This document shows positions 3,138-34,387 of a DNA stretch of 56,173 bases, piece after piece. The DNA is taken from the NCBI GenBank assembly GCA_009929055.1, contig SABI01000001.1, positions 1 to 56,173 of the forward strand. The letters run 5' to 3'. The translations under genes and the position numbers were made by a program. Each line of letters opens with the position of its first letter. Within the stretch, counting starts at the first letter, position 1. The stretch comes from Spirochaetia bacterium. GTDB taxonomy: Bacteria; Spirochaetota; Spirochaetia; Sphaerochaetales; Sphaerochaetaceae. The notes under the pieces were generated by a model. That model was not told where the DNA came from. It saw only the letters and a list, made by a program, of their open reading frames with translations, and ran no database searches.

Positions 3138-4379
3138 ATGGATGTAAAACGGTTGCAACTGTGGAAAGATCGACATGCTACGATGCTTTCTAATGATCTT
3201 ATCAAAACAATTATTGAAGATGGTGGAGGGATGGTAAGAGAGTTGAGCAATACGAATAAGTATGGAGGAAGGGTAAATGCACACCCTCTTTTCTACTTTC
3301 TAGGAAAGGGGTCCTCTGTTGCTGAAGATGCAAACCATGACCTATACAATAATGCAAACCTCCTTTACACATTAGGAGGAAATTTCTTTTGTTTTCCAAA
3401 TTTTGGGCCTCCTCACTCCTATAATAATACTAACCTACCTCCCCATGGCTTTACTGCTAATGGGCTGTGGAATGTCGTTAAATATGGTACCGATGGAGAA
3501 ACTGGTGCTACTTGGCTCCTTAGTACCCTTATCGGTGTTGGAGACTACCCTTATATTGCCAATAAAATTGAGATGCTTCTTCCTAATCATCCAGTCTTAT
3601 ATAGTAGCGTGACAATTGAGAACCCTTCAGATAACCCAATTATTGCAAATGCTGCATGGCACAATACTACCGGCTCTCCATTTTTAGAGTCAGGATGTAT
3701 TATTAACTTAGCGGCTAAAGAGTTTGTTACAGTCGAGAAAGGGTCTGAGTTTGACTCTACTGGCCGCCTAGCAATGGGGGCAACATTTGATGATCTCACC
3801 AAAGCTCCCCTAAGAAGTGGAGGTACTTGTGATATAGAACAAGTTCCTGGAATGATTGGCTTTACCGATTTAATAAGTGGCAAAATTCCATCTGAAAATA
3901 AACTTGGATGGGCAAGTGTAATTAACCCTGCCCAGCAAATGGTCTATTTCACATTCTTTCCAGGGCCTAGTGCTGTTGAAGAAGATGAAATTCCTCTTAC
4001 CTTTAATAATCTATGGATGCAGTATGGTGGGAGGAAATTTACCCCTTGGGCACTATATGAAGGGGGGACAGACCACACCTTCTGTTTAGGAGTTGAAAAC
4101 TCAATTGGGTATTATGCCTCTGGATTAGCTGAGTCTGTAAAACAAGGAAATTTATTAGGTTCACCCACAACTGTTACTATAAAACCCCATTCACGTAGAG
4201 TGCAACGGTATGCCACAGCTTTTACCGATTATGAGCAAGTTAAAATGGGCTCTGGTATTCAATCAGTAGAACAGGTAGTTGAAGGAATTGTCCTTAAAAG
4301 GGGAAAGTATTGGGCCTTTATTGAAAGCGATTCGACGTTCCATTTCTTGAAGGAACTAGAGAAGAAGGTATTAAATTAA
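3138..4379 (+). CDS. uncharacterised 413-aa cytoplasmic protein, possibly with a galactose-mutarotase-like (DUF4432/aldose-epimerase-like) fold
   Basis: Long uninterrupted ORF with no signal peptide, divergently placed from the GH36 gene. The stretch GGNFFCFPNFGPP...LPPHGFTANGLW resembles mutarotase-like sugar-binding proteins, from memory only. The CDS is confident; the function is weak. Confidence 0.45.
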   Translation: MDVKRLQLWKDRHATMLSNDLIKTIIEDGGGMVRELSNTNKYGGRVNAHPLFYFLGKGSSVAEDANHDLYNNANLLYTLGGNFFCFPNFGPPHSYNNTNLPPHGFTANGLWNVVKYGTDGETGATWLLSTLIGVGDYPYIANKIEMLLPNHPVLYSSVTIENPSDNPIIANAAWHNTTGSPFLESGCIINLAAKEFVTVEKGSEFDSTGRLAMGATFDDLTKAPLRSGGTCDIEQVPGMIGFTDLISGKIPSENKLGWASVINPAQQMVYFTFFPGPSAVEEDEIPLTFNNLWMQYGGRKFTPWALYEGGTDHTFCLGVENSIGYYASGLAESVKQGNLLGSPTTVTIKPHSRRVQRYATAFTDYEQVKMGSGIQSVEQVVEGIVLKRGKYWAFIESDSTFHFLKELEKKVLN

Positions 4380-4388
4380 TAGATAGAG

Positions 4389-5702
4389 TTAAAGTGGGGA
4401 AGTAGCTTCTATGAGGTTAGTTCCCTTATTTTTTACAGAGAAGTTTGGGATAGTCTGAGTAAAGAGAACTTTTCCTCCTTGGTCCTTAAAAAAGATAGTA
4501 GCTTTATATTCTCCAGCAGTGAGGTTTATTCCCCCTACCCATGCAAGTGACGGGAGGAAGTGAGAGGATCTTACATCAGCTTGTTCAGAGACAAAATTAG
4601 TAAGTTTTAAAAGAGCACTTAAGATCATCTCACCAACTGACGCTTCATTGTCTTCATAGATAACATTATCGTAGATTTCTACCCCAATAGCCTTAAAAGT
4701 TGCCCTCATCACAGCTTTGAATTTGGTGAGCTCTTCTGTTGCTTTGAACGTTTCCATTGCAATATTACTTATACTCTCTATTTTTTCTAATGGAATTTCT
4801 TTCCCTCCATCAATAGAGACGCTCACATATTTTACAGGGGAGGGTCTTGCTATCATTACTGGATAGGCAATTTTTGCATAATATCCACTATAGATATATA
4901 AGAGTTCAATTTCTTCCACCTTTTGGGGAGCTAATCCATTAAACGCAACTATGTTGAGACGTGCTTTCCCACTAGGGATTGGTTTTGCCTCTTCTTGTAA
5001 TGAAGATGGGGGGGCAAATGGATAAAGGGATTGTTGAGTAGCAAATGAGCGATTTACTTGATCGAGTGCATAAGTAAAGAGGTTATCTTCTTCTAAACCT
5101 CGAGCAACAACCATTGTGAGATATGAAGCTAAAGCAGATGAAGAGAAAGAGGAGGAGTATGTAGCCGTTCTAATATTACTGACTCCTTTAGAAGTTGCCC
5201 CTTTTATAATCTTTTCTATCTGTTTTTCATATTTCTGTTTAAGGAGAGATTGTTTTTCAATTGAACGGTTTAATTCTACGAGGGCAGAATCTTCCTCTCC
5301 TAATTGAAGATAGTTGAGGGCTTTAAATACGTTAATGTAGATATCTTCAAAATCTTCTCCCTTATAGGCTACAGTGTTGTCATTTACTATATAGGAGGCA
5401 ATATTTGCACTTATGCTTGATGTATAAGCCTCTTTGATTGCCCTTTCTGAAGATGATAGGAGGGTGTTAGAGAGGGTATATTCATTATCGAGTCGAAGAA
5501 GAAGCCCTGCGTCTAAGTTTAATATAATAGGGCCTTGTTTTTTTAGAATTGCCTCTTTTTTATCGAGTAGCTTAAGATAGGCTTTTTCGTAATTTCCCTG
5601 TTGGTAGCTATACTGACTCTCTGAGATATCAACGAGGGAGGAACATCCCAAAATGAGGGTTAATAATAGTACAATGGGTAATAGTAGCAATTTTCTCATC
5701 AT
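4389..5702 (-). CDS. 437-aa lipoprotein of unknown function with a TPR-like N-terminal region
   Basis: Signal peptide plus lipobox MMRKLLLLPIVLLLTLILG-C-SS. The helical repeat-like N-terminus contains YQQGNYEKAYLKLL. It is divergent from the lipoprotein operon at 5909-9508. Confidence 0.8.
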   Translation of the reverse strand: MMRKLLLLPIVLLLTLILGCSSLVDISESQYSYQQGNYEKAYLKLLDKKEAILKKQGPIILNLDAGLLLRLDNEYTLSNTLLSSSERAIKEAYTSSISANIASYIVNDNTVAYKGEDFEDIYINVFKALNYLQLGEEDSALVELNRSIEKQSLLKQKYEKQIEKIIKGATSKGVSNIRTATYSSSFSSSALASYLTMVVARGLEEDNLFTYALDQVNRSFATQQSLYPFAPPSSLQEEAKPIPSGKARLNIVAFNGLAPQKVEEIELLYIYSGYYAKIAYPVMIARPSPVKYVSVSIDGGKEIPLEKIESISNIAMETFKATEELTKFKAVMRATFKAIGVEIYDNVIYEDNEASVGEMILSALLKLTNFVSEQADVRSSHFLPSLAWVGGINLTAGEYKATIFFKDQGGKVLFTQTIPNFSVKNKGTNLIEATSPL

Positions 5703-5908
5703 GGTGTTTGACTCTTATTTATAAACTTATGCAATGACTGATTACACAAGGAGATTGTACCATTGTTAAAAAGCCCATGCAACAGAGAATGTAAGGAACT
5801 GTTTATGAATAAAGTGTAAAAATGTTACATTCTGGCAATTTTGGTGTTTAATATGCAATGCATCTAGAGTAGAATATATACTATAATTCTCATTAACGGA
5901 GTATTCAT

Positions 5909-6517
5909 ATGAAAAAAAAATTATTGTCCTCATTTCTTTTATTTGCACTTCTCATCCTTTTGGTCTCTTGTCAGTCGAGTATCTCTGTAGATAGACTCGC
6001 TTCTGATAAAGATATCGACCTAAGTGGTGATTGGAATGATACAGATATTAGAATAGCTGCATCTTCATTAGTGGAAGATAGTCTCCGTTCTCCTTGGATT
6101 GATCAGTTTAGAATGCGAAAGATGAAAAACCCTGTTGTTATAGTGGGTACTTTCTTAAATAGAAGTAGTGAACATATTGATACCTCGATCATCGCAAAGC
6201 GCTATGAAATAGAGCTCATTAATTCTGGAAAGGTTGATATGGTTGCAGATGTCGCTTTTAGAGCTACTGTTCGTGATGAAAGAGAAGGACAGCAGTACTT
6301 CGCTAGTGAATCAACTGCAAAAGCGTTAGGTAAAGAAATAGGGGCAGACTTCCTTCTACAAGGATCGGTGAGGACGAATTTAGACCAAGTGAGTGGGAAG
6401 TCGGTTCGCACTTACTATATTACTGCTGAACTAATTGATATCGAAACAAACAAAAAAGTATGGGTTGGAGAAGAAACCATTAAAAAAATGGTTAAGCAAA
6501 GTAAATATAAGTTTTAA
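5909..6517 (+). CDS. LpoB/FlgO-like (TolB-N-like fold) lipoprotein
   Basis: GGAG RBS lies 8 nt upstream. Lipobox is LLILLVS-C-QS. At 202 aa, the pattern NPVVIVGTFLNRSSEHIDTSII...FLLQGSV matches my recollection of the YcfM/LpoB-type lipoprotein family. Confidence 0.6.
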   Translation: MKKKLLSSFLLFALLILLVSCQSSISVDRLASDKDIDLSGDWNDTDIRIAASSLVEDSLRSPWIDQFRMRKMKNPVVIVGTFLNRSSEHIDTSIIAKRYEIELINSGKVDMVADVAFRATVRDEREGQQYFASESTAKALGKEIGADFLLQGSVRTNLDQVSGKSVRTYYITAELIDIETNKKVWVGEETIKKMVKQSKYKF

Positions 6518-6534
6518 ATGAAGGGCTTTTACCG

Positions 6535-7566
6535 ATGAAGAATACATATAAGTTTTTACTATTTCCCTTGATCTTTATAATGCTCCTCTTTTTCATCTCT
6601 TGTTCATCTCTTTCAACACCTTCTTCTCCTCCTTGGCTAAATACCCTCTACGATAAGCAATATAATGAAGATACGTATCTCAATGCCATAGGAAGTGGCT
6701 CTTCTAGAGAGAAGGCAGTAGATGCAGCTCTTAGCTCTCTCTCCCAGGTATTTAATTCTCAAGTAAGATCAATTACTACCGTTCTTTCTACCTCTACTGC
6801 AGCTGATGATGGTGTTAGTGATGTTAAGTTTACTGAAAGCTCTGAGTTAATAGATCAATCCTCTGTTACAAGTACTACTGAAAGAATTGTTGGAGCAGAG
6901 GTGGTAAACACCTACATCGATTCAAACCAAAGAGTATATGTCAGAGTTGCACTACATAGAAAAAGAAGTGCTGAGTTGTATCAAAAAGAGGTATTCAATC
7001 TCGACACTTCTATTATGAATGTGCGAAGAGAGATGCTCTCTATAAAAGATCCTCTTCGTGCCTACTTCACCCTCTCTAAAGCTGTTGGGTATGCAAAGAG
7101 GCAACAGCTTCTCTATGACCAAATAGAGGTGCTTCTTAAGAAAAGTCAGAATTCAAAACTTTTTGTAGTACAAAATGAATTAAATGCAATAGCTTCTTCT
7201 GTAAAGATAGCTATTAAGGTAGAGGCTCTTGAAGGGAAAGAAGTGCTTCTGGCATCCTTTAGTCAAAACTTAATTGATTTAGGGTTTTCGATTGTAGAAC
7301 AAGAAGAAGAGTCGAGTGCTCAACTAGTTGTCAGTTATGAATCGAGTCCATTGAATATGGCAAATAGTCCTTATATGTATCAGCGCTATACAATTTCAGC
7401 GACTCTCCTTAGTGGCTCTACTACTTTATACTCGTATCAAAAGAGTGAAAGAGAAGCTGCGCTGAGTGAAGAAGAAGCACAGAAAAAAGCCTTAATTCAG
7501 GCTTCAACTGTTGCTGTAGATGAATTTTTTACCCTCTTGGAACAAACTCTTGGGGATATTAAGTAA
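6535..7566 (+). CDS. lipoprotein with an N-terminal LPP20/FlgP-like domain
   Basis: Lipobox LLFFIS-C-SS. LPP20-type signature PPWLNTLY...YLNAIGSGSSREKAVDAALSSLSQVFNSQV...VYVRVAL. It starts 17 nt after the preceding gene. Confidence 0.65.
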   Translation: MKNTYKFLLFPLIFIMLLFFISCSSLSTPSSPPWLNTLYDKQYNEDTYLNAIGSGSSREKAVDAALSSLSQVFNSQVRSITTVLSTSTAADDGVSDVKFTESSELIDQSSVTSTTERIVGAEVVNTYIDSNQRVYVRVALHRKRSAELYQKEVFNLDTSIMNVRREMLSIKDPLRAYFTLSKAVGYAKRQQLLYDQIEVLLKKSQNSKLFVVQNELNAIASSVKIAIKVEALEGKEVLLASFSQNLIDLGFSIVEQEEESSAQLVVSYESSPLNMANSPYMYQRYTISATLLSGSTTLYSYQKSEREAALSEEEAQKKALIQASTVAVDEFFTLLEQTLGDIK

Positions 7567-7593
7567 TAATTATTTTATGTTGGAGGTCTTTTC

Positions 7594-8181
7594 ATGAAAA
7601 AGATGTTGATTATCCTTGTTTCCGCCCTTCTCTTGTTCTCTATTGTTGGTTGTGCAACTACAAAGAAAGTAGAAGCCCCTAAACCTGCCAAAGTGGTAAT
7701 TCTTGGTGCTGATGGAATACCTCAACCAGATTGGGTATACAAAACAGTAAGTGCCCAAGATGCCCACTATGAATCTGGATATGGGAAAATGAGTGATAAA
7801 CAGAACTCAATTAAACGAGCTACTGTAGAAGCTAAGAACAAGATTGCTGCTTGGGTAAGTACCTCTGTGAAAGAAGTAGTAGTTACCTATGTAAACGATG
7901 CTGGCACTGGTGAGAACAGACAAGCAATGGATGCAATGGAATCAATTAGTCAACAAGTTGCTGAGGCAACCCTTTCTGGAGTTTCAACTGAAGAGATGTG
8001 GGTTGATGCTGAAGGTGGAGTGTGGGTTCTTTGTTCAATTCCACTTGCTAACATTGAGAAAAGTTTTGAACCTGCAGCTGAAGCTGTAGCCGAAGCGTTT
8101 GTTGAAAGTGACGCAGCAGCAGCTGCGAATGCGAAGATGAAAGATGCGTTTGCTAACTTACTAAAAGGTAGTAATCTTTAA
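7594..8181 (+). CDS. LPP20/FlgP-like lipoprotein (paralogue A)
   Basis: GGAGG RBS lies 7 nt upstream. Lipobox LLFSIVG-C-AT. Signature PDWVYK...YESGYGKMSDKQNSIKRATVEAKNKIAAWVSTSV...GGVWVLCSIP, followed by an Ala-rich C-terminal tail. Confidence 0.7.
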   Translation: MKKMLIILVSALLLFSIVGCATTKKVEAPKPAKVVILGADGIPQPDWVYKTVSAQDAHYESGYGKMSDKQNSIKRATVEAKNKIAAWVSTSVKEVVVTYVNDAGTGENRQAMDAMESISQQVAEATLSGVSTEEMWVDAEGGVWVLCSIPLANIEKSFEPAAEAVAEAFVESDAAAAANAKMKDAFANLLKGSNL

Positions 8182-8951
8182 TGACTAAATGGTGGCCTAT
8201 CCTCATACTCATCCTCTCTCTTATTGGGTGTTCTACTTCTGTTGGAGTCCTTGAGAGAAATGAATATGAGGGGCCTCTGTCGTTACTAGATATCACTCAG
8301 TATCCATCAAATGTGTATGTAGGCCTCTCTGGCCCCTATTCAACAAAAGAGAAAATGGTAGAGGTGGCTCTTATGAGCTGTGCTAAAGGAATCCTTTTAG
8401 AGGAGGCCTTAGCCTTAGATAGTCGCTTTGTTATGAGAGAGGATTCTGATAAAGGGCTCACTTCATTTGCTTTAAAAGAACACGCCTATTATGATGATAC
8501 CTCACTCGCTAAAGTAATAGAGGAACTCACTATCATCTCTATTACCTTTGAAAAAGATGCAGGCGCTATAGTATGTGCTGAGTATGGAAAAAAAGAGAAG
8601 AATAGTAGAGCTTTGAAAGTTACACTCGATTCATTTGGAAAACCTACTTGGTTAAAGAACTATCCTACTAAAGAGGGATATCTGTTTGGTGTGGGCAATA
8701 GTAGATCGTATTACTACCTTAATGATTCATTAGAGGCTTCTGACTTTGCTGCAGCTCAAAATATCTTAGACCTTTACAGTGAACATTTGTTTTCTACCTC
8801 TATAGAGACAAACCGTGTGGGAAGTGAGAATAGTATGGATCGTGCCGTTTATCAAGCACAACGGGGATTATTACAAGGTTTTAGGATAGTAGACCGATAT
8901 TATGATAAAGAAGAAGATACCTATTGGTCTCTTGCTTCTATAAGAGAATAA
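8181..8951 (+). CDS. lipoprotein with a C-terminal LPP20/FlgP-like domain
   Basis: The start overlaps the previous stop (TAATG at 8179-8183). Lipobox ILSLIG-C-ST. C-terminal signature PTWLKNYPTKEGYLFGVGNSRS...AAAQNILDL...YWSLASI. Confidence 0.65.
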   Translation: MTKWWPILILILSLIGCSTSVGVLERNEYEGPLSLLDITQYPSNVYVGLSGPYSTKEKMVEVALMSCAKGILLEEALALDSRFVMREDSDKGLTSFALKEHAYYDDTSLAKVIEELTIISITFEKDAGAIVCAEYGKKEKNSRALKVTLDSFGKPTWLKNYPTKEGYLFGVGNSRSYYYLNDSLEASDFAAAQNILDLYSEHLFSTSIETNRVGSENSMDRAVYQAQRGLLQGFRIVDRYYDKEEDTYWSLASIRE

Positions 8952-8962
8952 GAAGGAATGAT

Positions 8963-9508
8963 ATGAAGAAGTTATCAATTATTACAGTTATTATACTTGT
9001 GTTAGTCTCACTGATGAGCTGTGCGACTACTAAGCCAAATGCTGATGGGTCTCCATATTGGACCACATCTACCCCTAAGAGTACCCGAACTCTCCACTAT
9101 GAAGTTGGCTCTGCTAAACAATCTACTGCTCAGTTAAGCCTTTTAAGGGCTGAGTCTGCTGCAAAAGATGCTATTGGAAGATGGGCTTCTACGAATGTGG
9201 AGAGCGCTATTGTTACCTTTATTGAAGAAGCAGGAGAGACTCTAAGAAACCAGCAGAGCCTTGAAGTTTTACAGAATCTAAGTGTTCAAACAGTAAATAT
9301 TGCCCTTAAAGGGGTGAGTGTTGTAGAGCGCTATACTGCACCAGATGGAACCGTGTGGGTCCTCTCTTCATATCCTGTAAAGAACCTTAAAGATGCCTAT
9401 AAACAACAGACTCTTGCCTTAAAACAGAAGTTAGAGATGGCTGAAGAGAAGATAGAATTGATGAGTAACTTTTTAGAAAGCCAATTAGAAAAAGAAATAT
9501 CTGAATAA
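8963..9508 (+). CDS. LPP20/FlgP-like lipoprotein (paralogue B)
   Basis: I prefer ATG 8963 (GAAGGAA RBS, MKKLSIITVIILVLVSLMS-C-AT) over the ORF-track start at 8924. The protein is clearly paralogous to 7594-8181 (PYW...YEVGSAKQS...AAKDAIGRWASTNVES...DGTVWVLSSYP) and has a coiled-coil-like C-terminus. Confidence 0.7.
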   Translation: MKKLSIITVIILVLVSLMSCATTKPNADGSPYWTTSTPKSTRTLHYEVGSAKQSTAQLSLLRAESAAKDAIGRWASTNVESAIVTFIEEAGETLRNQQSLEVLQNLSVQTVNIALKGVSVVERYTAPDGTVWVLSSYPVKNLKDAYKQQTLALKQKLEMAEEKIELMSNFLESQLEKEISE

Positions 9509-9524
9509 AAAAGGGTATAAAAAA

Positions 9525-9549
9525 GGTAGTTCTTGCTATTAGAACTACC
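9525..9549. terminator. hairpin terminator shared by the lipoprotein operon (+) and tRNA-Cys (-)
   Basis: Perfect 9-bp stem GGTAGTTCT/AGAACTACC with a 7-nt loop. On the minus strand it is followed by TTTTTTATA (complement of 9516-9524); on the plus strand it is preceded by an A-run. Confidence 0.65.
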
Positions 9550-9551
9550 TA

Positions 9552-9623
9552 AGGTGCCGATCGGATTCGAACCGATGCATAGAGGTTTTGCAGACCTGTC
9601 CCTTACCACTTGGGTACGGCACC
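9552..9623 (-). tRNA. tRNA-Cys (anticodon GCA)
   Basis: The reverse complement folds by eye as a cloverleaf: acceptor GGTGCCG/CGGCACC, anticodon loop CTGCAAA, T-arm ATCGG-TTCGAAT-CCGAT. It is 72 nt and CCA is not encoded. Confidence 0.9.
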
Positions 9624-28894: not shown

Positions 28895-29755
28895 TTATTG
28901 TACAATGAAGGTTCCACTGATTGCACTACGCACTTCAGAAGGGACCTTTCTTGTTTGTACAATAGTAATAGGGATATGCTCTACGTTTAGTGGAATAAGA
29001 TTCTTAGAAAAAATATAATCACTTCTAAGGGAGAGCCCTTGAATACGAAGAGTAGATTCTTTCTCTAATTGGTTTATATAGTGAGAAGTCATAAACGGAT
29101 CAATAAAAGAATAATCAAAGAGGATGTCACTATCAAAAGGGTGGTAGAGCGAGGCAAAAACAAGAGTTGGAGTATCTGTTAAAGAGGTAAGGTATTCATT
29201 AAGTTGTTCACTCATATCTTCTTTTAAGGTCCAAGAATCAATTCTTTGTCCACTTAGTGCTTCATAATAATAAGAATTATCTCTTATATCGATGAGAGAA
29301 ATAGCTATTGATTTATCTTCTGGTAAGGAGAATATGAGGTAAGGGTATTGAGTCTTTTTAAATGGAAGATTGGTTGCAAGAAGACTATTATGTGTGAGTT
29401 CAATATATTCAAAAGAGAGGGAGTCTTTTAGTTTCTCAAGGATAATATTTTCTCCCGTAAATGCAACGATATCTAAGTTCTCTTCGTTAATTCGTTTGGC
29501 AATGAGGGTGATATCACCCTCTATGACAAAGGAGGGAAGGGGGAGGAATGAGGCTGTTAAGAAACTCTTTTTTGTCTCCTCTTTTATTTCAATATTGGCT
29601 TCAGGCTCTTTTACATTTCCTACTGCTTTTCTCACTTTTGAAGGAATCGGTTTTATCTCTATTTTTGCATCTTCATATGTGTACGTTTGACATGATAGGA
29701 AGGAGAAGATTATCAGCGTGATGGCTAAGAGAAGAGAGGTTCTTTTTATTCTCAT
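28895..29755 (-). CDS. 286-aa lipoprotein of unknown function, possibly a degenerate endonuclease/exonuclease/phosphatase-like fold
   Basis: Lipobox LIIFSFLS-C-QT. The DIVAFTGEN and RSDYIFSKN stretches recall EEP-family motifs, but the terminal SDH motif is absent. It overlaps the bcp stop by 4 nt. Confidence 0.6.
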   Translation of the reverse strand: MRIKRTSLLLAITLIIFSFLSCQTYTYEDAKIEIKPIPSKVRKAVGNVKEPEANIEIKEETKKSFLTASFLPLPSFVIEGDITLIAKRINEENLDIVAFTGENIILEKLKDSLSFEYIELTHNSLLATNLPFKKTQYPYLIFSLPEDKSIAISLIDIRDNSYYYEALSGQRIDSWTLKEDMSEQLNEYLTSLTDTPTLVFASLYHPFDSDILFDYSFIDPFMTSHYINQLEKESTLRIQGLSLRSDYIFSKNLIPLNVEHIPITIVQTRKVPSEVRSAISGTFIVQ

Positions 29756-30216
29756 GCAAGGGTCTCTAGAAAATCACTTATTTCTTGTCCATGTGTTGCA
29801 ACTGTAACTTTTGGATAGACTTTTATTAATTCTCCTTTAGTATCAAAAATAAAGGTGCTTCTTAATACTCCAAAATAGGTTTTTCCATACATAGACTTTT
29901 CTCCCCAAGCTCCAAGGTATTCTAATACTGAATGGTCCGGGTCACTTAGGAGTGAGAACGTGAGTTCATATTTGTCGATAAACTTCTGATGCGAAGAAGG
30001 GGAGTCGGGACTAATGCCCAACACAACACCATTTTTTGCTTTAATTTGTGGATGGGTATCTCGAAGAGAACACGCTTCGGTAGTACATCCTGGGGTGTTA
30101 TCTTTTGGATAGGCATATAAGACAATATATGTCCCTTTGTAGGAAGAGAGATCTACTTTTTCTCCCTTTTCGTTTTCTAATATGATGTTTGGAATTTTTG
30201 AACCGATTTCTAACAT
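29752..30216 (-). CDS. bcp: peroxiredoxin, Bcp/PrxQ type
   Basis: Peroxidatic motif TPGCTTEAC. 154 aa. AGGAG RBS. Confidence 0.9.
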   Translation of the reverse strand: MLEIGSKIPNIILENEKGEKVDLSSYKGTYIVLYAYPKDNTPGCTTEACSLRDTHPQIKAKNGVVLGISPDSPSSHQKFIDKYELTFSLLSDPDHSVLEYLGAWGEKSMYGKTYFGVLRSTFIFDTKGELIKVYPKVTVATHGQEISDFLETLA

Positions 30217-33679: not shown

Positions 33680-34387
33680 ATGGAAATTCAAGAGTTAAAT
33701 GAGTTAAGCCCTTTAAGGGCGTTTGATAAATCACTAAACGGTGGTTTAGGAAAAGGGAATTTAGGAGTGCTTGTTTCTCGCCATGGAGTGGGAAAAACAG
33801 CGTGCTTAGTTCACCTTGCTACAGATAAATTGTTTAGAAATGAACACATTATCCATGTTTCTTTTTCAGGCAATGTTGAACACGTCATTAGTTGGTATAA
33901 AGAAGTCTTCAGACAAATTTCTGAAAACAAAGATTTAGAAGATGCTTCAGACATTTATAATGAAATACTTGCTAATCGTGTTGTTATGAATTTTAGTCAA
34001 GAAAATGTATCAGTTGAGAAAGTTTTATCAAGTTTAGAAACTCTCATTCGTCAAGGATCTTTTAATGCAGATGCAGTTATGTTTGATGGGTATCACCTTA
34101 CTTTAGCAAGTGAAGAAGATGTCAGAAAAATTAAACAATTTGCTTTAGATATGCGCCTTGAAGTATGGTTCTCGGTATCTCCTGTCAAGATGAACATTAA
34201 CTATGATGCCTATGGTGTTCCTGAAACGATGTTGAAATATGAAGAGCTTATTGATGTTCTTATTGGGCTAAAATACAACGAAGATATGGATAAAGTAATT
34301 ATGACTCTCGTAAAGGATGGAGAATCTCTTGATCCTAAACCAATGCAAGTAAAGCTTGATCCTAAAACAATGCTTATTGTTGATTAA
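33680..34387 (+). CDS. stand-alone KaiC/RadA/DnaB-C-like RecA-superfamily P-loop domain protein with degenerate catalytic motifs
   Basis: FDKSLNGGLGKGNLGVLVSRHGVGKTACLVHLA matches the family N-terminus and Walker A. Walker B-like AVMFDG is present. The gene is monocistronic, lying between two terminators. Confidence 0.65.
   Translation: MEIQELNELSPLRAFDKSLNGGLGKGNLGVLVSRHGVGKTACLVHLATDKLFRNEHIIHVSFSGNVEHVISWYKEVFRQISENKDLEDASDIYNEILANRVVMNFSQENVSVEKVLSSLETLIRQGSFNADAVMFDGYHLTLASEEDVRKIKQFALDMRLEVWFSVSPVKMNINYDAYGVPETMLKYEELIDVLIGLKYNEDMDKVIMTLVKDGESLDPKPMQVKLDPKTMLIVD

Follow-up and report, generated by a model that had tools for sequence, protein, structure and literature searches.

The 56,173-nucleotide (nt) window analyzed here (contig SABI01000001.1, positions 1 to 56,173, of assembly GCA_009929055.1) comes from a Spirochaetia bacterium of the family Sphaerochaetaceae. 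Between positions 4389 and 9508 it carries six adjacent lipoprotein genes, designated A (4389–5702, minus strand) and, in order on the plus strand, B to F (5909–9508). We consider it about an even chance that this locus encodes a self-contained, non-flagellar scaffold of the cell envelope, composed of six lipid-anchored periplasmic proteins. The locus is best read as the single-locus spirochaete counterpart of hp0018, hp1457, hp1454, and hp1456, which are scattered in Helicobacter pylori, and of cj0089–cj0091 of Campylobacter jejuni.

Four families (HP0018-, HP1457/LpoB-, HP1454-, and Lpp20-type) were found here in one co-conserved unit. In Helicobacter, they are scattered and have been studied separately, and their members have been interpreted partly through the flagellar motor and partly through peptidoglycan hydrolases. 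Their joint occurrence in one unit argues that they act together. The unit also occurs, in enlarged form, in a lineage that is reported to have neither flagella nor penicillin-binding proteins (PBPs). This constitutes a natural experiment, which separates the core role of the module from motor support and from PBP1B activation. Two questions can be approached in culturable Sphaerochaeta, namely the role of the LpoB family outside gammaproteobacteria and the origin of flagellar disk proteins. The component families are known and widespread, and the counterpart in Campylobacterota is partly characterized; the function of the locus in spirochaetes is what we infer.

Organization and conservation of the locus

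The features of the locus are as follows (aa, amino acids).

4389–5702, minus strand: gene A, COG3014-family lipoprotein, 437 aa, lipobox LILG-C
5703–5908: divergent A/B intergenic region, 206 nt, AT-rich, presumably holding both promoters
5909–6517, plus strand: gene B, LpoB-family lipoprotein, 202 aa, lipobox LLVS-C
6535–7566, plus strand: gene C, HP1454/FlgT-like three-domain lipoprotein, 343 aa, lipobox FFIS-C
7594–8181, plus strand: gene D, short Lpp20-like lipoprotein, 195 aa, lipobox SIVG-C
8181–8951, plus strand: gene E, lipoprotein, 256 aa, lipobox SLIG-C; its start overlaps the D stop (TAATG)
8963–9508, plus strand: gene F, short Lpp20-like lipoprotein, 181 aa, lipobox SLMS-C
9524–9550: hairpin with a 10-bp stem at the operon end; T-run on the minus strand
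9552–9623, minus strand: tRNA-Cys (GCA), convergent on the operon end

As described in the initial annotation, which was made from the sequence alone, each of the six open reading frames (ORFs) begins with a signal peptide that ends in a lipobox cysteine, and re-measurement of the junctions gave the same values of 17, 27, −1 (TAATG), and 11 nt. All six signal peptides have a basic n-region followed by a hydrophobic core. A simple lipobox test detected a lipoprotein signal in 7 of the 50 window ORFs of at least 150 aa. The clustering is not due to chance, because six of these only seven signal-bearing ORFs are genes A–F and form one block. The lipobox was kept in 67 of 81 orthologues of A, 73 of 75 of B, 65 of 69 of C, 25 of 26 of D, 16 of 18 of E, and all 24 of F. 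The tight spacing and the overlaps within the locus suggest coupled expression.

The hairpin at 9524–9550, originally taken as the terminator of the operon, was confirmed, although its T-run falls on the minus strand, which is the strand of the tRNA. We therefore assign it as terminator to the convergent tRNA-Cys gene; at best it acts in both directions, in which case it would possibly terminate the operon as well. The 206-nt region between A and B contained one weak sigma-70-like match (5848–5875, plus strand), only short repeats, none of them significant, and no Rfam match. The 9-mer TATGCAATG occurs twice in this region, at 5728–5736 and 5852–5860 (124 nt apart), so that each copy precedes A or B by a few tens of nt. 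The pair could be a chance occurrence in AT-rich DNA or a shared operator.

To assess conservation, one genome per species was scanned with the COG3014 profile; 519 relatives were obtained, the best 80 loci were kept, and their ORFs were searched with iterated profiles of A–F. All 80 loci belonged to Sphaerochaeta, Sphaerochaetaceae, Treponema, or Treponemataceae, except for one labeled Bacteroides uniformis. This last contig (L035) harbors a spirochaete-like B and A pair, with A 37% identical to that of the window, which is the level of Treponema; it is probably a mis-binned contig rather than the source of a Bacteroides gene. The synteny of these loci bore out the proposal that the genes are co-conserved as one unit. 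The conserved unit consisted of B, A, and C, or a superset of these, in most of the 80 loci. Most loci, including that of the cultured, flagellated Treponema brennaborense, had the order B-A-C in one direction. Among 45 co-directional loci, 35 had the start of C inside the end of A with an overlap of precisely 13 nt, a junction that is remarkably constant in Treponema and Sphaerochaetaceae, and the gaps between B and A were mostly 0–30 nt. Gene A is a core partner of the LpoB-like gene, not an add-on, and this holds in spirochaetes and also in Aeromonas (see below).

Loci of the Sphaerochaeta lineage have A in the opposite orientation and D, E, and F downstream of C, exactly as in the window, with E missing from some relatives. 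The window arrangement was seen again in at least 13 Sphaerochaeta loci, and a few termite-gut Treponema carried D and E upstream of B. The six-gene form is a Sphaerochaeta-lineage expansion in which D, E, and F were added to the core. S. pleomorpha Grapes has the same six-gene layout (441, 202, 356, 194, 253, and 195 aa) in an unrelated neighborhood. E is absent from several Sphaerochaeta relatives (loci L003, L016, L022, and L030) and looks dispensable. In Sphaerochaeta halotolerans (locus L020, 6820–7523), the E orthologue is split into ORFs of 70 and 151 aa, which suggests a frameshift or a pseudogene.

Conserved non-lipoprotein neighbors, namely enzymes, barrels, and flagellar genes, were sought near the core of the related loci, and none was found. 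The flanking genes, which include those for an ABC ATPase, a histidine kinase, an M20 peptidase, a glyoxalase, TrpA, a rhodanese, and a helicase, were not conserved. Because genes outside the lipoprotein set are not conserved, the unit is self-contained and consists of lipoproteins only.

The named homologues of A, of C, and of the UvrC encoded in the window were all from Sphaerochaeta or Sphaerochaetaceae. The published genomes of S. pleomorpha and S. globosa contain no motility or chemotaxis genes and no penicillin-binding proteins (PMC3372971). A flagellar role is argued against because S. pleomorpha, with an identical locus, has no motility genes, and the textbook LpoB–PBP1B mechanism is argued against in this lineage because the genus is reported to lack PBPs. 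The gene families that most commonly flank the 80 loci included no flagellar one. The flagellar emphasis of the initial annotation was therefore not upheld. The presence of the B-A-C core in flagellated Treponema, T. brennaborense included, speaks on the other side.

The six protein families and their counterparts in other phyla

Two homologues of A carry the NCBI/UniRef name "COG3014 family protein", and A belongs to this family by its size class (lipoproteins of approximately 440–480 aa), its TPR-like domain, and a full-length match to an Aeromonas member. COG3014, which comprises 4966 representatives (50% clustering, E ≤ 1e-3), presumably also includes HP0018 of H. pylori and Cj0089 of C. 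jejuni. The AlphaFold2 model of A (predicted local distance difference test, pLDDT, 83.4; predicted template modeling score, pTM, 0.82) consists of an N-terminal TPR-like helical domain (approximately 27–222) and a C-terminal region (approximately 246–435) with a beta-sandwich and a long helical hairpin insert. Foldseek comparison of the model with the PDB returned generic TPR matches only, none at E ≤ 1e-3. A profile search of the PDB with the A family gave no sequence at E ≤ 1, and neither search provided a clue to the C-terminal domain. The charged residues D64, D108, E116, E119, E143, K150, E309, R333, E373, D376, and R378 are invariant and are common even to the Aeromonas homologue. The statement that the block contains no enzyme accordingly stands by annotation, but is open to question for A, with its uncharacterized C-terminal domain and many invariant charged residues.

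Long COG3014 representatives were inspected for fusions to LpoB or LPP20 domains. None was found; the only fusions were to an outer-membrane protein (OMP) beta-barrel, Big_2, and GYF_2. Representative P0232 has a lipobox at the front and an OMP beta-barrel behind a Pro/Ala/Thr linker, and this fusion behind a lipobox argues for an outer-membrane-proximal location. Additional C-terminal domains were Big_2/Ig in P0244 and GYF_2 in P0189 and P0225, and other long members, of up to 982 aa, had extensions without a Pfam match.

B matched Pfam LpoB (PF13036) with E = 1.5e-35 and 122.6 bits (cut-off 22.3), and fell below the NCBIfam LpoB equivalog TIGR02722 (90.7 bits vs. a cut-off of 110.55). A Pfam scan at E ≤ 1 returned LpoB and DUF3280 only, with no FlgO family, and B is not adjacent to flgP in a flagellar locus. 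Of the original designation "LpoB/FlgO-like", the LpoB half is thus retained and the FlgO half is not. B was 29% identical to Aeromonas LpoB (E = 2e-18), which in turn matches solved LpoB structures. A single-sequence PDB search with B gave only spurious LRRK2 matches, and the LpoB structures were reached via Aeromonas LpoB. From Cys21 to the start of the domain at residue 46, the linker of B spans approximately 25 residues, and that of Aeromonas LpoB is similarly short; the flexible linker of E. coli LpoB, with approximately 50 residues, is long enough to span the periplasm.

The AlphaFold2 model of C (pLDDT 81.2) has three domains: an LPP20/SHS2 domain (48–141), a helical middle domain (142–222), and an LptE/CsgG-like alpha/beta domain (224–340). 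C matched Pfam LPP20 (PF02169, IPR024952) with E = 1.7e-7 and 32.0 bits (cut-off 25.9). Its top Foldseek match in the PDB was 4kzs (HP1454, a secreted protein of H. pylori), with E = 4.2e-8 over 312 columns, a target-normalized TM-score of 0.49, and 13% identity in the structural alignment; the C family profile matched 4kzs with E = 1.3e-4. Matches to LptE (approximately 1e-6) and to Vibrio FlgT (3w1e, 1.4e-4 over 349 columns) were also obtained, and the C-terminal domain matched LptE, GNA1162, TraT, and CsgG. Residues 88–120 (33 residues) form an insert in the LPP20/SHS2 domain that is gap-free in Sphaerochaeta and Treponema and is conserved like the folded domains. FlgP-family proteins tend to form rings when they carry an insert that separates the SHS2 helix from strand 2 (PMC12222027). 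The insert of C lies at the same position as the ring-forming hairpin of FlgP and was modeled, as a monomer, at pLDDT <50. A segment predicted with low confidence yet conserved would fit one that is ordered only in the oligomer.

D matched Pfam LPP20 with E = 5.6e-6 and 27.1 bits, and F scored slightly under the cut-off of 25.9 (E = 3.6e-5, 24.5 bits). The two are paralogues (hhalign, 100%), and both matched the N-domain of C at approximately 96–97% (F, 96.9%) after removal of signal peptides. The D/F profile matched H. pylori Lpp20 (5ok8) with E = 0.006. D carries a Pro/Lys-rich linker and an Ala-rich C-terminal tail, and F a coiled-coil-like C-terminal tail. E had no Pfam or NCBIfam match; its C-terminal half (approximately 143–256) is an LPP20 domain according to hhalign (96.3% vs. 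D, 96.6% vs. F, and 76.4% vs. the N-domain of C), and its alignment shows the P-x-W and G-Y-x-F-G-x-G motifs. A comparison with signal peptides left on had suggested a tandem repeat in E. A FlgQ-like tandem LPP20 repeat was not supported, as the N-terminal half reached ≤14% against anything after trimming of the signal peptides. The initial annotation counted four LPP20-type proteins, and this was supported by Pfam for C and D, near the cut-off for F, and by profile–profile comparison of the C-terminal half for E.

A tblastn search of a plasmid collection revealed a match in a 4.9-Mb Aeromonas caviae record (NZ_AP026896.1). The encoded 480-aa lipoprotein matched the A profile over 400 columns (98.8%, E = 1.4e-16). 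Its gene is located between hinT and ycfL(DUF1425)-lpoB-thiK, which is a genuine lpoB locus, and thus constitutes an independent, cross-phylum linkage of COG3014 and LpoB. The COG3014 gene is directly upstream of ycfL and lpoB, and both A and B have a match in this locus; however, the Aeromonas locus has no LPP20 proteins and the spirochaete locus has no YcfL. Aeromonas LpoB is expected to act on PBP1B. The record itself, filed as "plasmid pKAM479_3", contains chromosomal housekeeping loci and only 18 annotated features, and appears to be a misfiled chromosome.

HP0018 is a TPR lipoprotein homologous to Cj0089. Deletion of hp0018 results in chains of outer-membrane vesicles and an altered, less helical cell shape, and AmiA and MltD were recovered with HP0018 by co-immunoprecipitation. 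In enterohepatic Helicobacter, hp0018 adjoins hp1457, whose product has been described as homologous to LpoB and orthologous to Cj0091 (PMC11394524 for all of these findings). HP1454 and HP1456 (Lpp20) are encoded in one operon, and both bind FlgP and the ring protein FapH (PMC11756786). When the spirochaete locus is compared with the H. pylori lpp20 operon (HP1454, HP1456, and HP1457) and HP0018, C resembles HP1454 and D and F resemble Lpp20, all being lipoproteins or secreted envelope proteins. B, a member of the LpoB family, is likened to HP1457 by its description as an LpoB homologue, and A to HP0018, a TPR lipoprotein of approximately 450 aa, by COG name, size, TPR content, and synteny. 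In contrast to H. pylori, the genes here form one locus, the LPP20 genes are duplicated, E is additional, and sequence identity is very low. HP1454 and HP1456 are moreover tied to the motor components FlgP and FapH, whereas the host lineage here has no flagella.

In C. jejuni, cj0089-cj0090-cj0091 form a co-transcribed lipoprotein operon, in which Cj0091 is located in the outer membrane and Cj0089 is inner-membrane-associated (PMC3100323). The resemblance lies in the co-transcription of an approximately 450-aa TPR lipoprotein (Cj0089) with Cj0091 (approximately 205 aa), which is 33.5% identical to HP1457. In contrast, cj0090 (122 aa) has no counterpart in the spirochaete locus, the C. jejuni operon has no LPP20 genes and is regulated by CmeR, and Cj0091 has been studied as an adhesin. 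An equivalence of Cj0090 and YcfL is conjectural, as a sequence search of the PDB with Aeromonas YcfL gave no Campylobacter chain.

The fourth comparison is with proteins of the flagellar disk and H-ring in Campylobacter and Vibrio, namely FlgP, FlgQ, FlgT, and FlgO. The LPP20/SHS2 fold is a common feature, C has a conserved insert at the position associated with ring formation, and C aligns to FlgT. In contrast, the lineage here has no flagellum, B is LpoB and not FlgO, rings are a conjecture, and the LPP20 proteins have neither the flagella nor the flagellar neighbors that mark FlgP. Literature searches on COG3014 and on LPP20/LpoB in spirochaetes returned no description of the locus. The earlier term "undescribed" accordingly applies to the spirochaete locus but not to its Campylobacterota counterpart (HP0018, HP1454–HP1457, and Cj0089–Cj0091), which is partly characterized.

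Proposed function and alternatives

From the observed gene structure, families, co-conservation, spacing and overlaps, and taxonomic setting, we infer complex formation, localization, and function of A–F as follows. All six proteins would be exported and acylated at the lipobox cysteine. A may serve as a TPR docking platform and B may provide a TolB-N/LpoB-type interaction domain, while C, D, E, and F would oligomerize via their SHS2/LPP20 domains, C perhaps through its conserved insert. The sub-membrane assembly of A–F would maintain the organization of the outer membrane and peptidoglycan, and may dock or restrain peptidoglycan-remodeling enzymes. The fallback proposal of the initial annotation, a peptidoglycan/outer-membrane tethering assembly, is close to this scaffold, although the flagellar alternative named beside it is not favored.

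Several points weigh against the scaffold. Its function would be carried over from distant homologues in Campylobacterota, and we take A as the equivalent of HP0018 and Cj0089 on COG names, size, TPR content, and LpoB-type synteny. A could be an enzyme or a ligand binder rather than a passive scaffold component. A role of the C insert as a hairpin in oligomerization is conjecture, as the segment was modeled at pLDDT <50. Absence of flagella and PBPs is taken from published Sphaerochaeta genomes, and the organism studied here is represented by 56 kb only. Finally, many lipoproteins of spirochaetes are surface-exposed, and hence a periplasmic orientation of A–F is not guaranteed.

The alternative that survives best, which we nevertheless consider rather unlikely, is a dedicated regulator of peptidoglycan enzymes, in which B would act on a synthase in the manner of LpoB, A would act on hydrolases (amidase and lytic transglycosylase) in the manner of HP0018, and the LPP20 proteins would be accessory. 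It overlaps with the scaffold. The membership of B in the LpoB family and the position of COG3014 inside a true Aeromonas lpoB operon are consistent with such regulation, and E. coli CpoB is a precedent for a TPR protein that modulates LpoB. Co-precipitation of AmiA and MltD with HP0018, and the altered cell shape on its loss, point in the same direction, although these partners come from co-immunoprecipitation and modeling only. The canonical target is absent, however, from Sphaerochaeta, which is reported to lack PBPs, B scores under the LpoB equivalog cut-off, and no peptidoglycan-enzyme neighbor is conserved.

A bolder form of the scaffold, which we regard as improbable, makes the locus a surviving example of a non-flagellar ancestral module, the source from which components of the flagellar disk, H-ring, and cage (FlgP, FlgT, and perhaps FlgO and TPR scaffolds) would later have been recruited. 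In an aflagellate spirochaete without PBPs, a free-standing ring or lattice of lipoproteins under the outer membrane would replace the missing rigidity of the wall.

There is a small chance that the six lipoproteins are exposed at the surface and serve as adhesins or antigens, as is often the case in spirochaetes. Cj0091 has a part in adherence and in the colonization of chicks, Lpp20 is described as a released antigen present in H. pylori vesicles, and many spirochaete lipoproteins are located at the surface. Against this, the core is kept from free-living or environmental Sphaerochaeta to termite-gut Treponema, COG3014 has thousands of representatives, and the linkage to lpoB in Aeromonas is of a housekeeping type. 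The TPR, LpoB, and LptE-like folds are, moreover, typical of proteins of the periplasmic face.

Slighter still is the prospect of an accessory to an outer-membrane channel or export route. Here a barrel encoded elsewhere would have its plug or gate in two parts of the locus, the domain of C that resembles LptE, CsgG, and GNA1162 and the LpoB/TolB-N fold of B. The matches of the C-terminal domain of C to LptE (approximately 1e-6), GNA1162, TraT, and CsgG and the fusion of one COG3014 homologue to an OMP beta-barrel would suit such a role. However, the locus has no co-conserved barrel, transporter, or ATPase, the fold of C is a generic two-layer sandwich of many outer-membrane lipoproteins, and the top whole-chain match of C is HP1454, not LptE.

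An expanded FlgO/FlgP-type scaffold tied to a (periplasmic) flagellar motor is very improbable. In its favor, the disk protein FlgP belongs to LPP20, the SHS2 fold is common to FlgT (PMC12222027), and C resembles FlgT and HP1454, with HP1454 and HP1456 binding FlgP and FapH in H. pylori, but the window is from Sphaerochaetaceae, the identical locus occurs in S. pleomorpha without motility or chemotaxis genes, the commonest flanking families are non-flagellar, and B lacks a FlgO match at E ≤ 1.

Other features of the window

The remainder of the window is ordinary core chromosome, with genes for EF-G, PheRS, UvrC, IspD/F, and purine metabolism. Between a GH36 alpha-galactosidase gene and A lies a 413-aa ORF (3138–4379, plus strand), the stop of which is 9 nt from that of the convergent gene A; it has no Pfam family at E ≤ 1e-5 and is not among the commonest families flanking the related loci. 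A 235-aa ORF downstream of the EF-G gene (33680–34387, plus strand) likewise has no Pfam family at E ≤ 1e-5. The seventh ORF with a lipoprotein signal (28895–29755, minus strand) encodes 286 aa with an FLS-C lipobox and no Pfam match, and overlaps by 4 nt the upstream gene for an AhpC/TSA peroxiredoxin (29752–30216).

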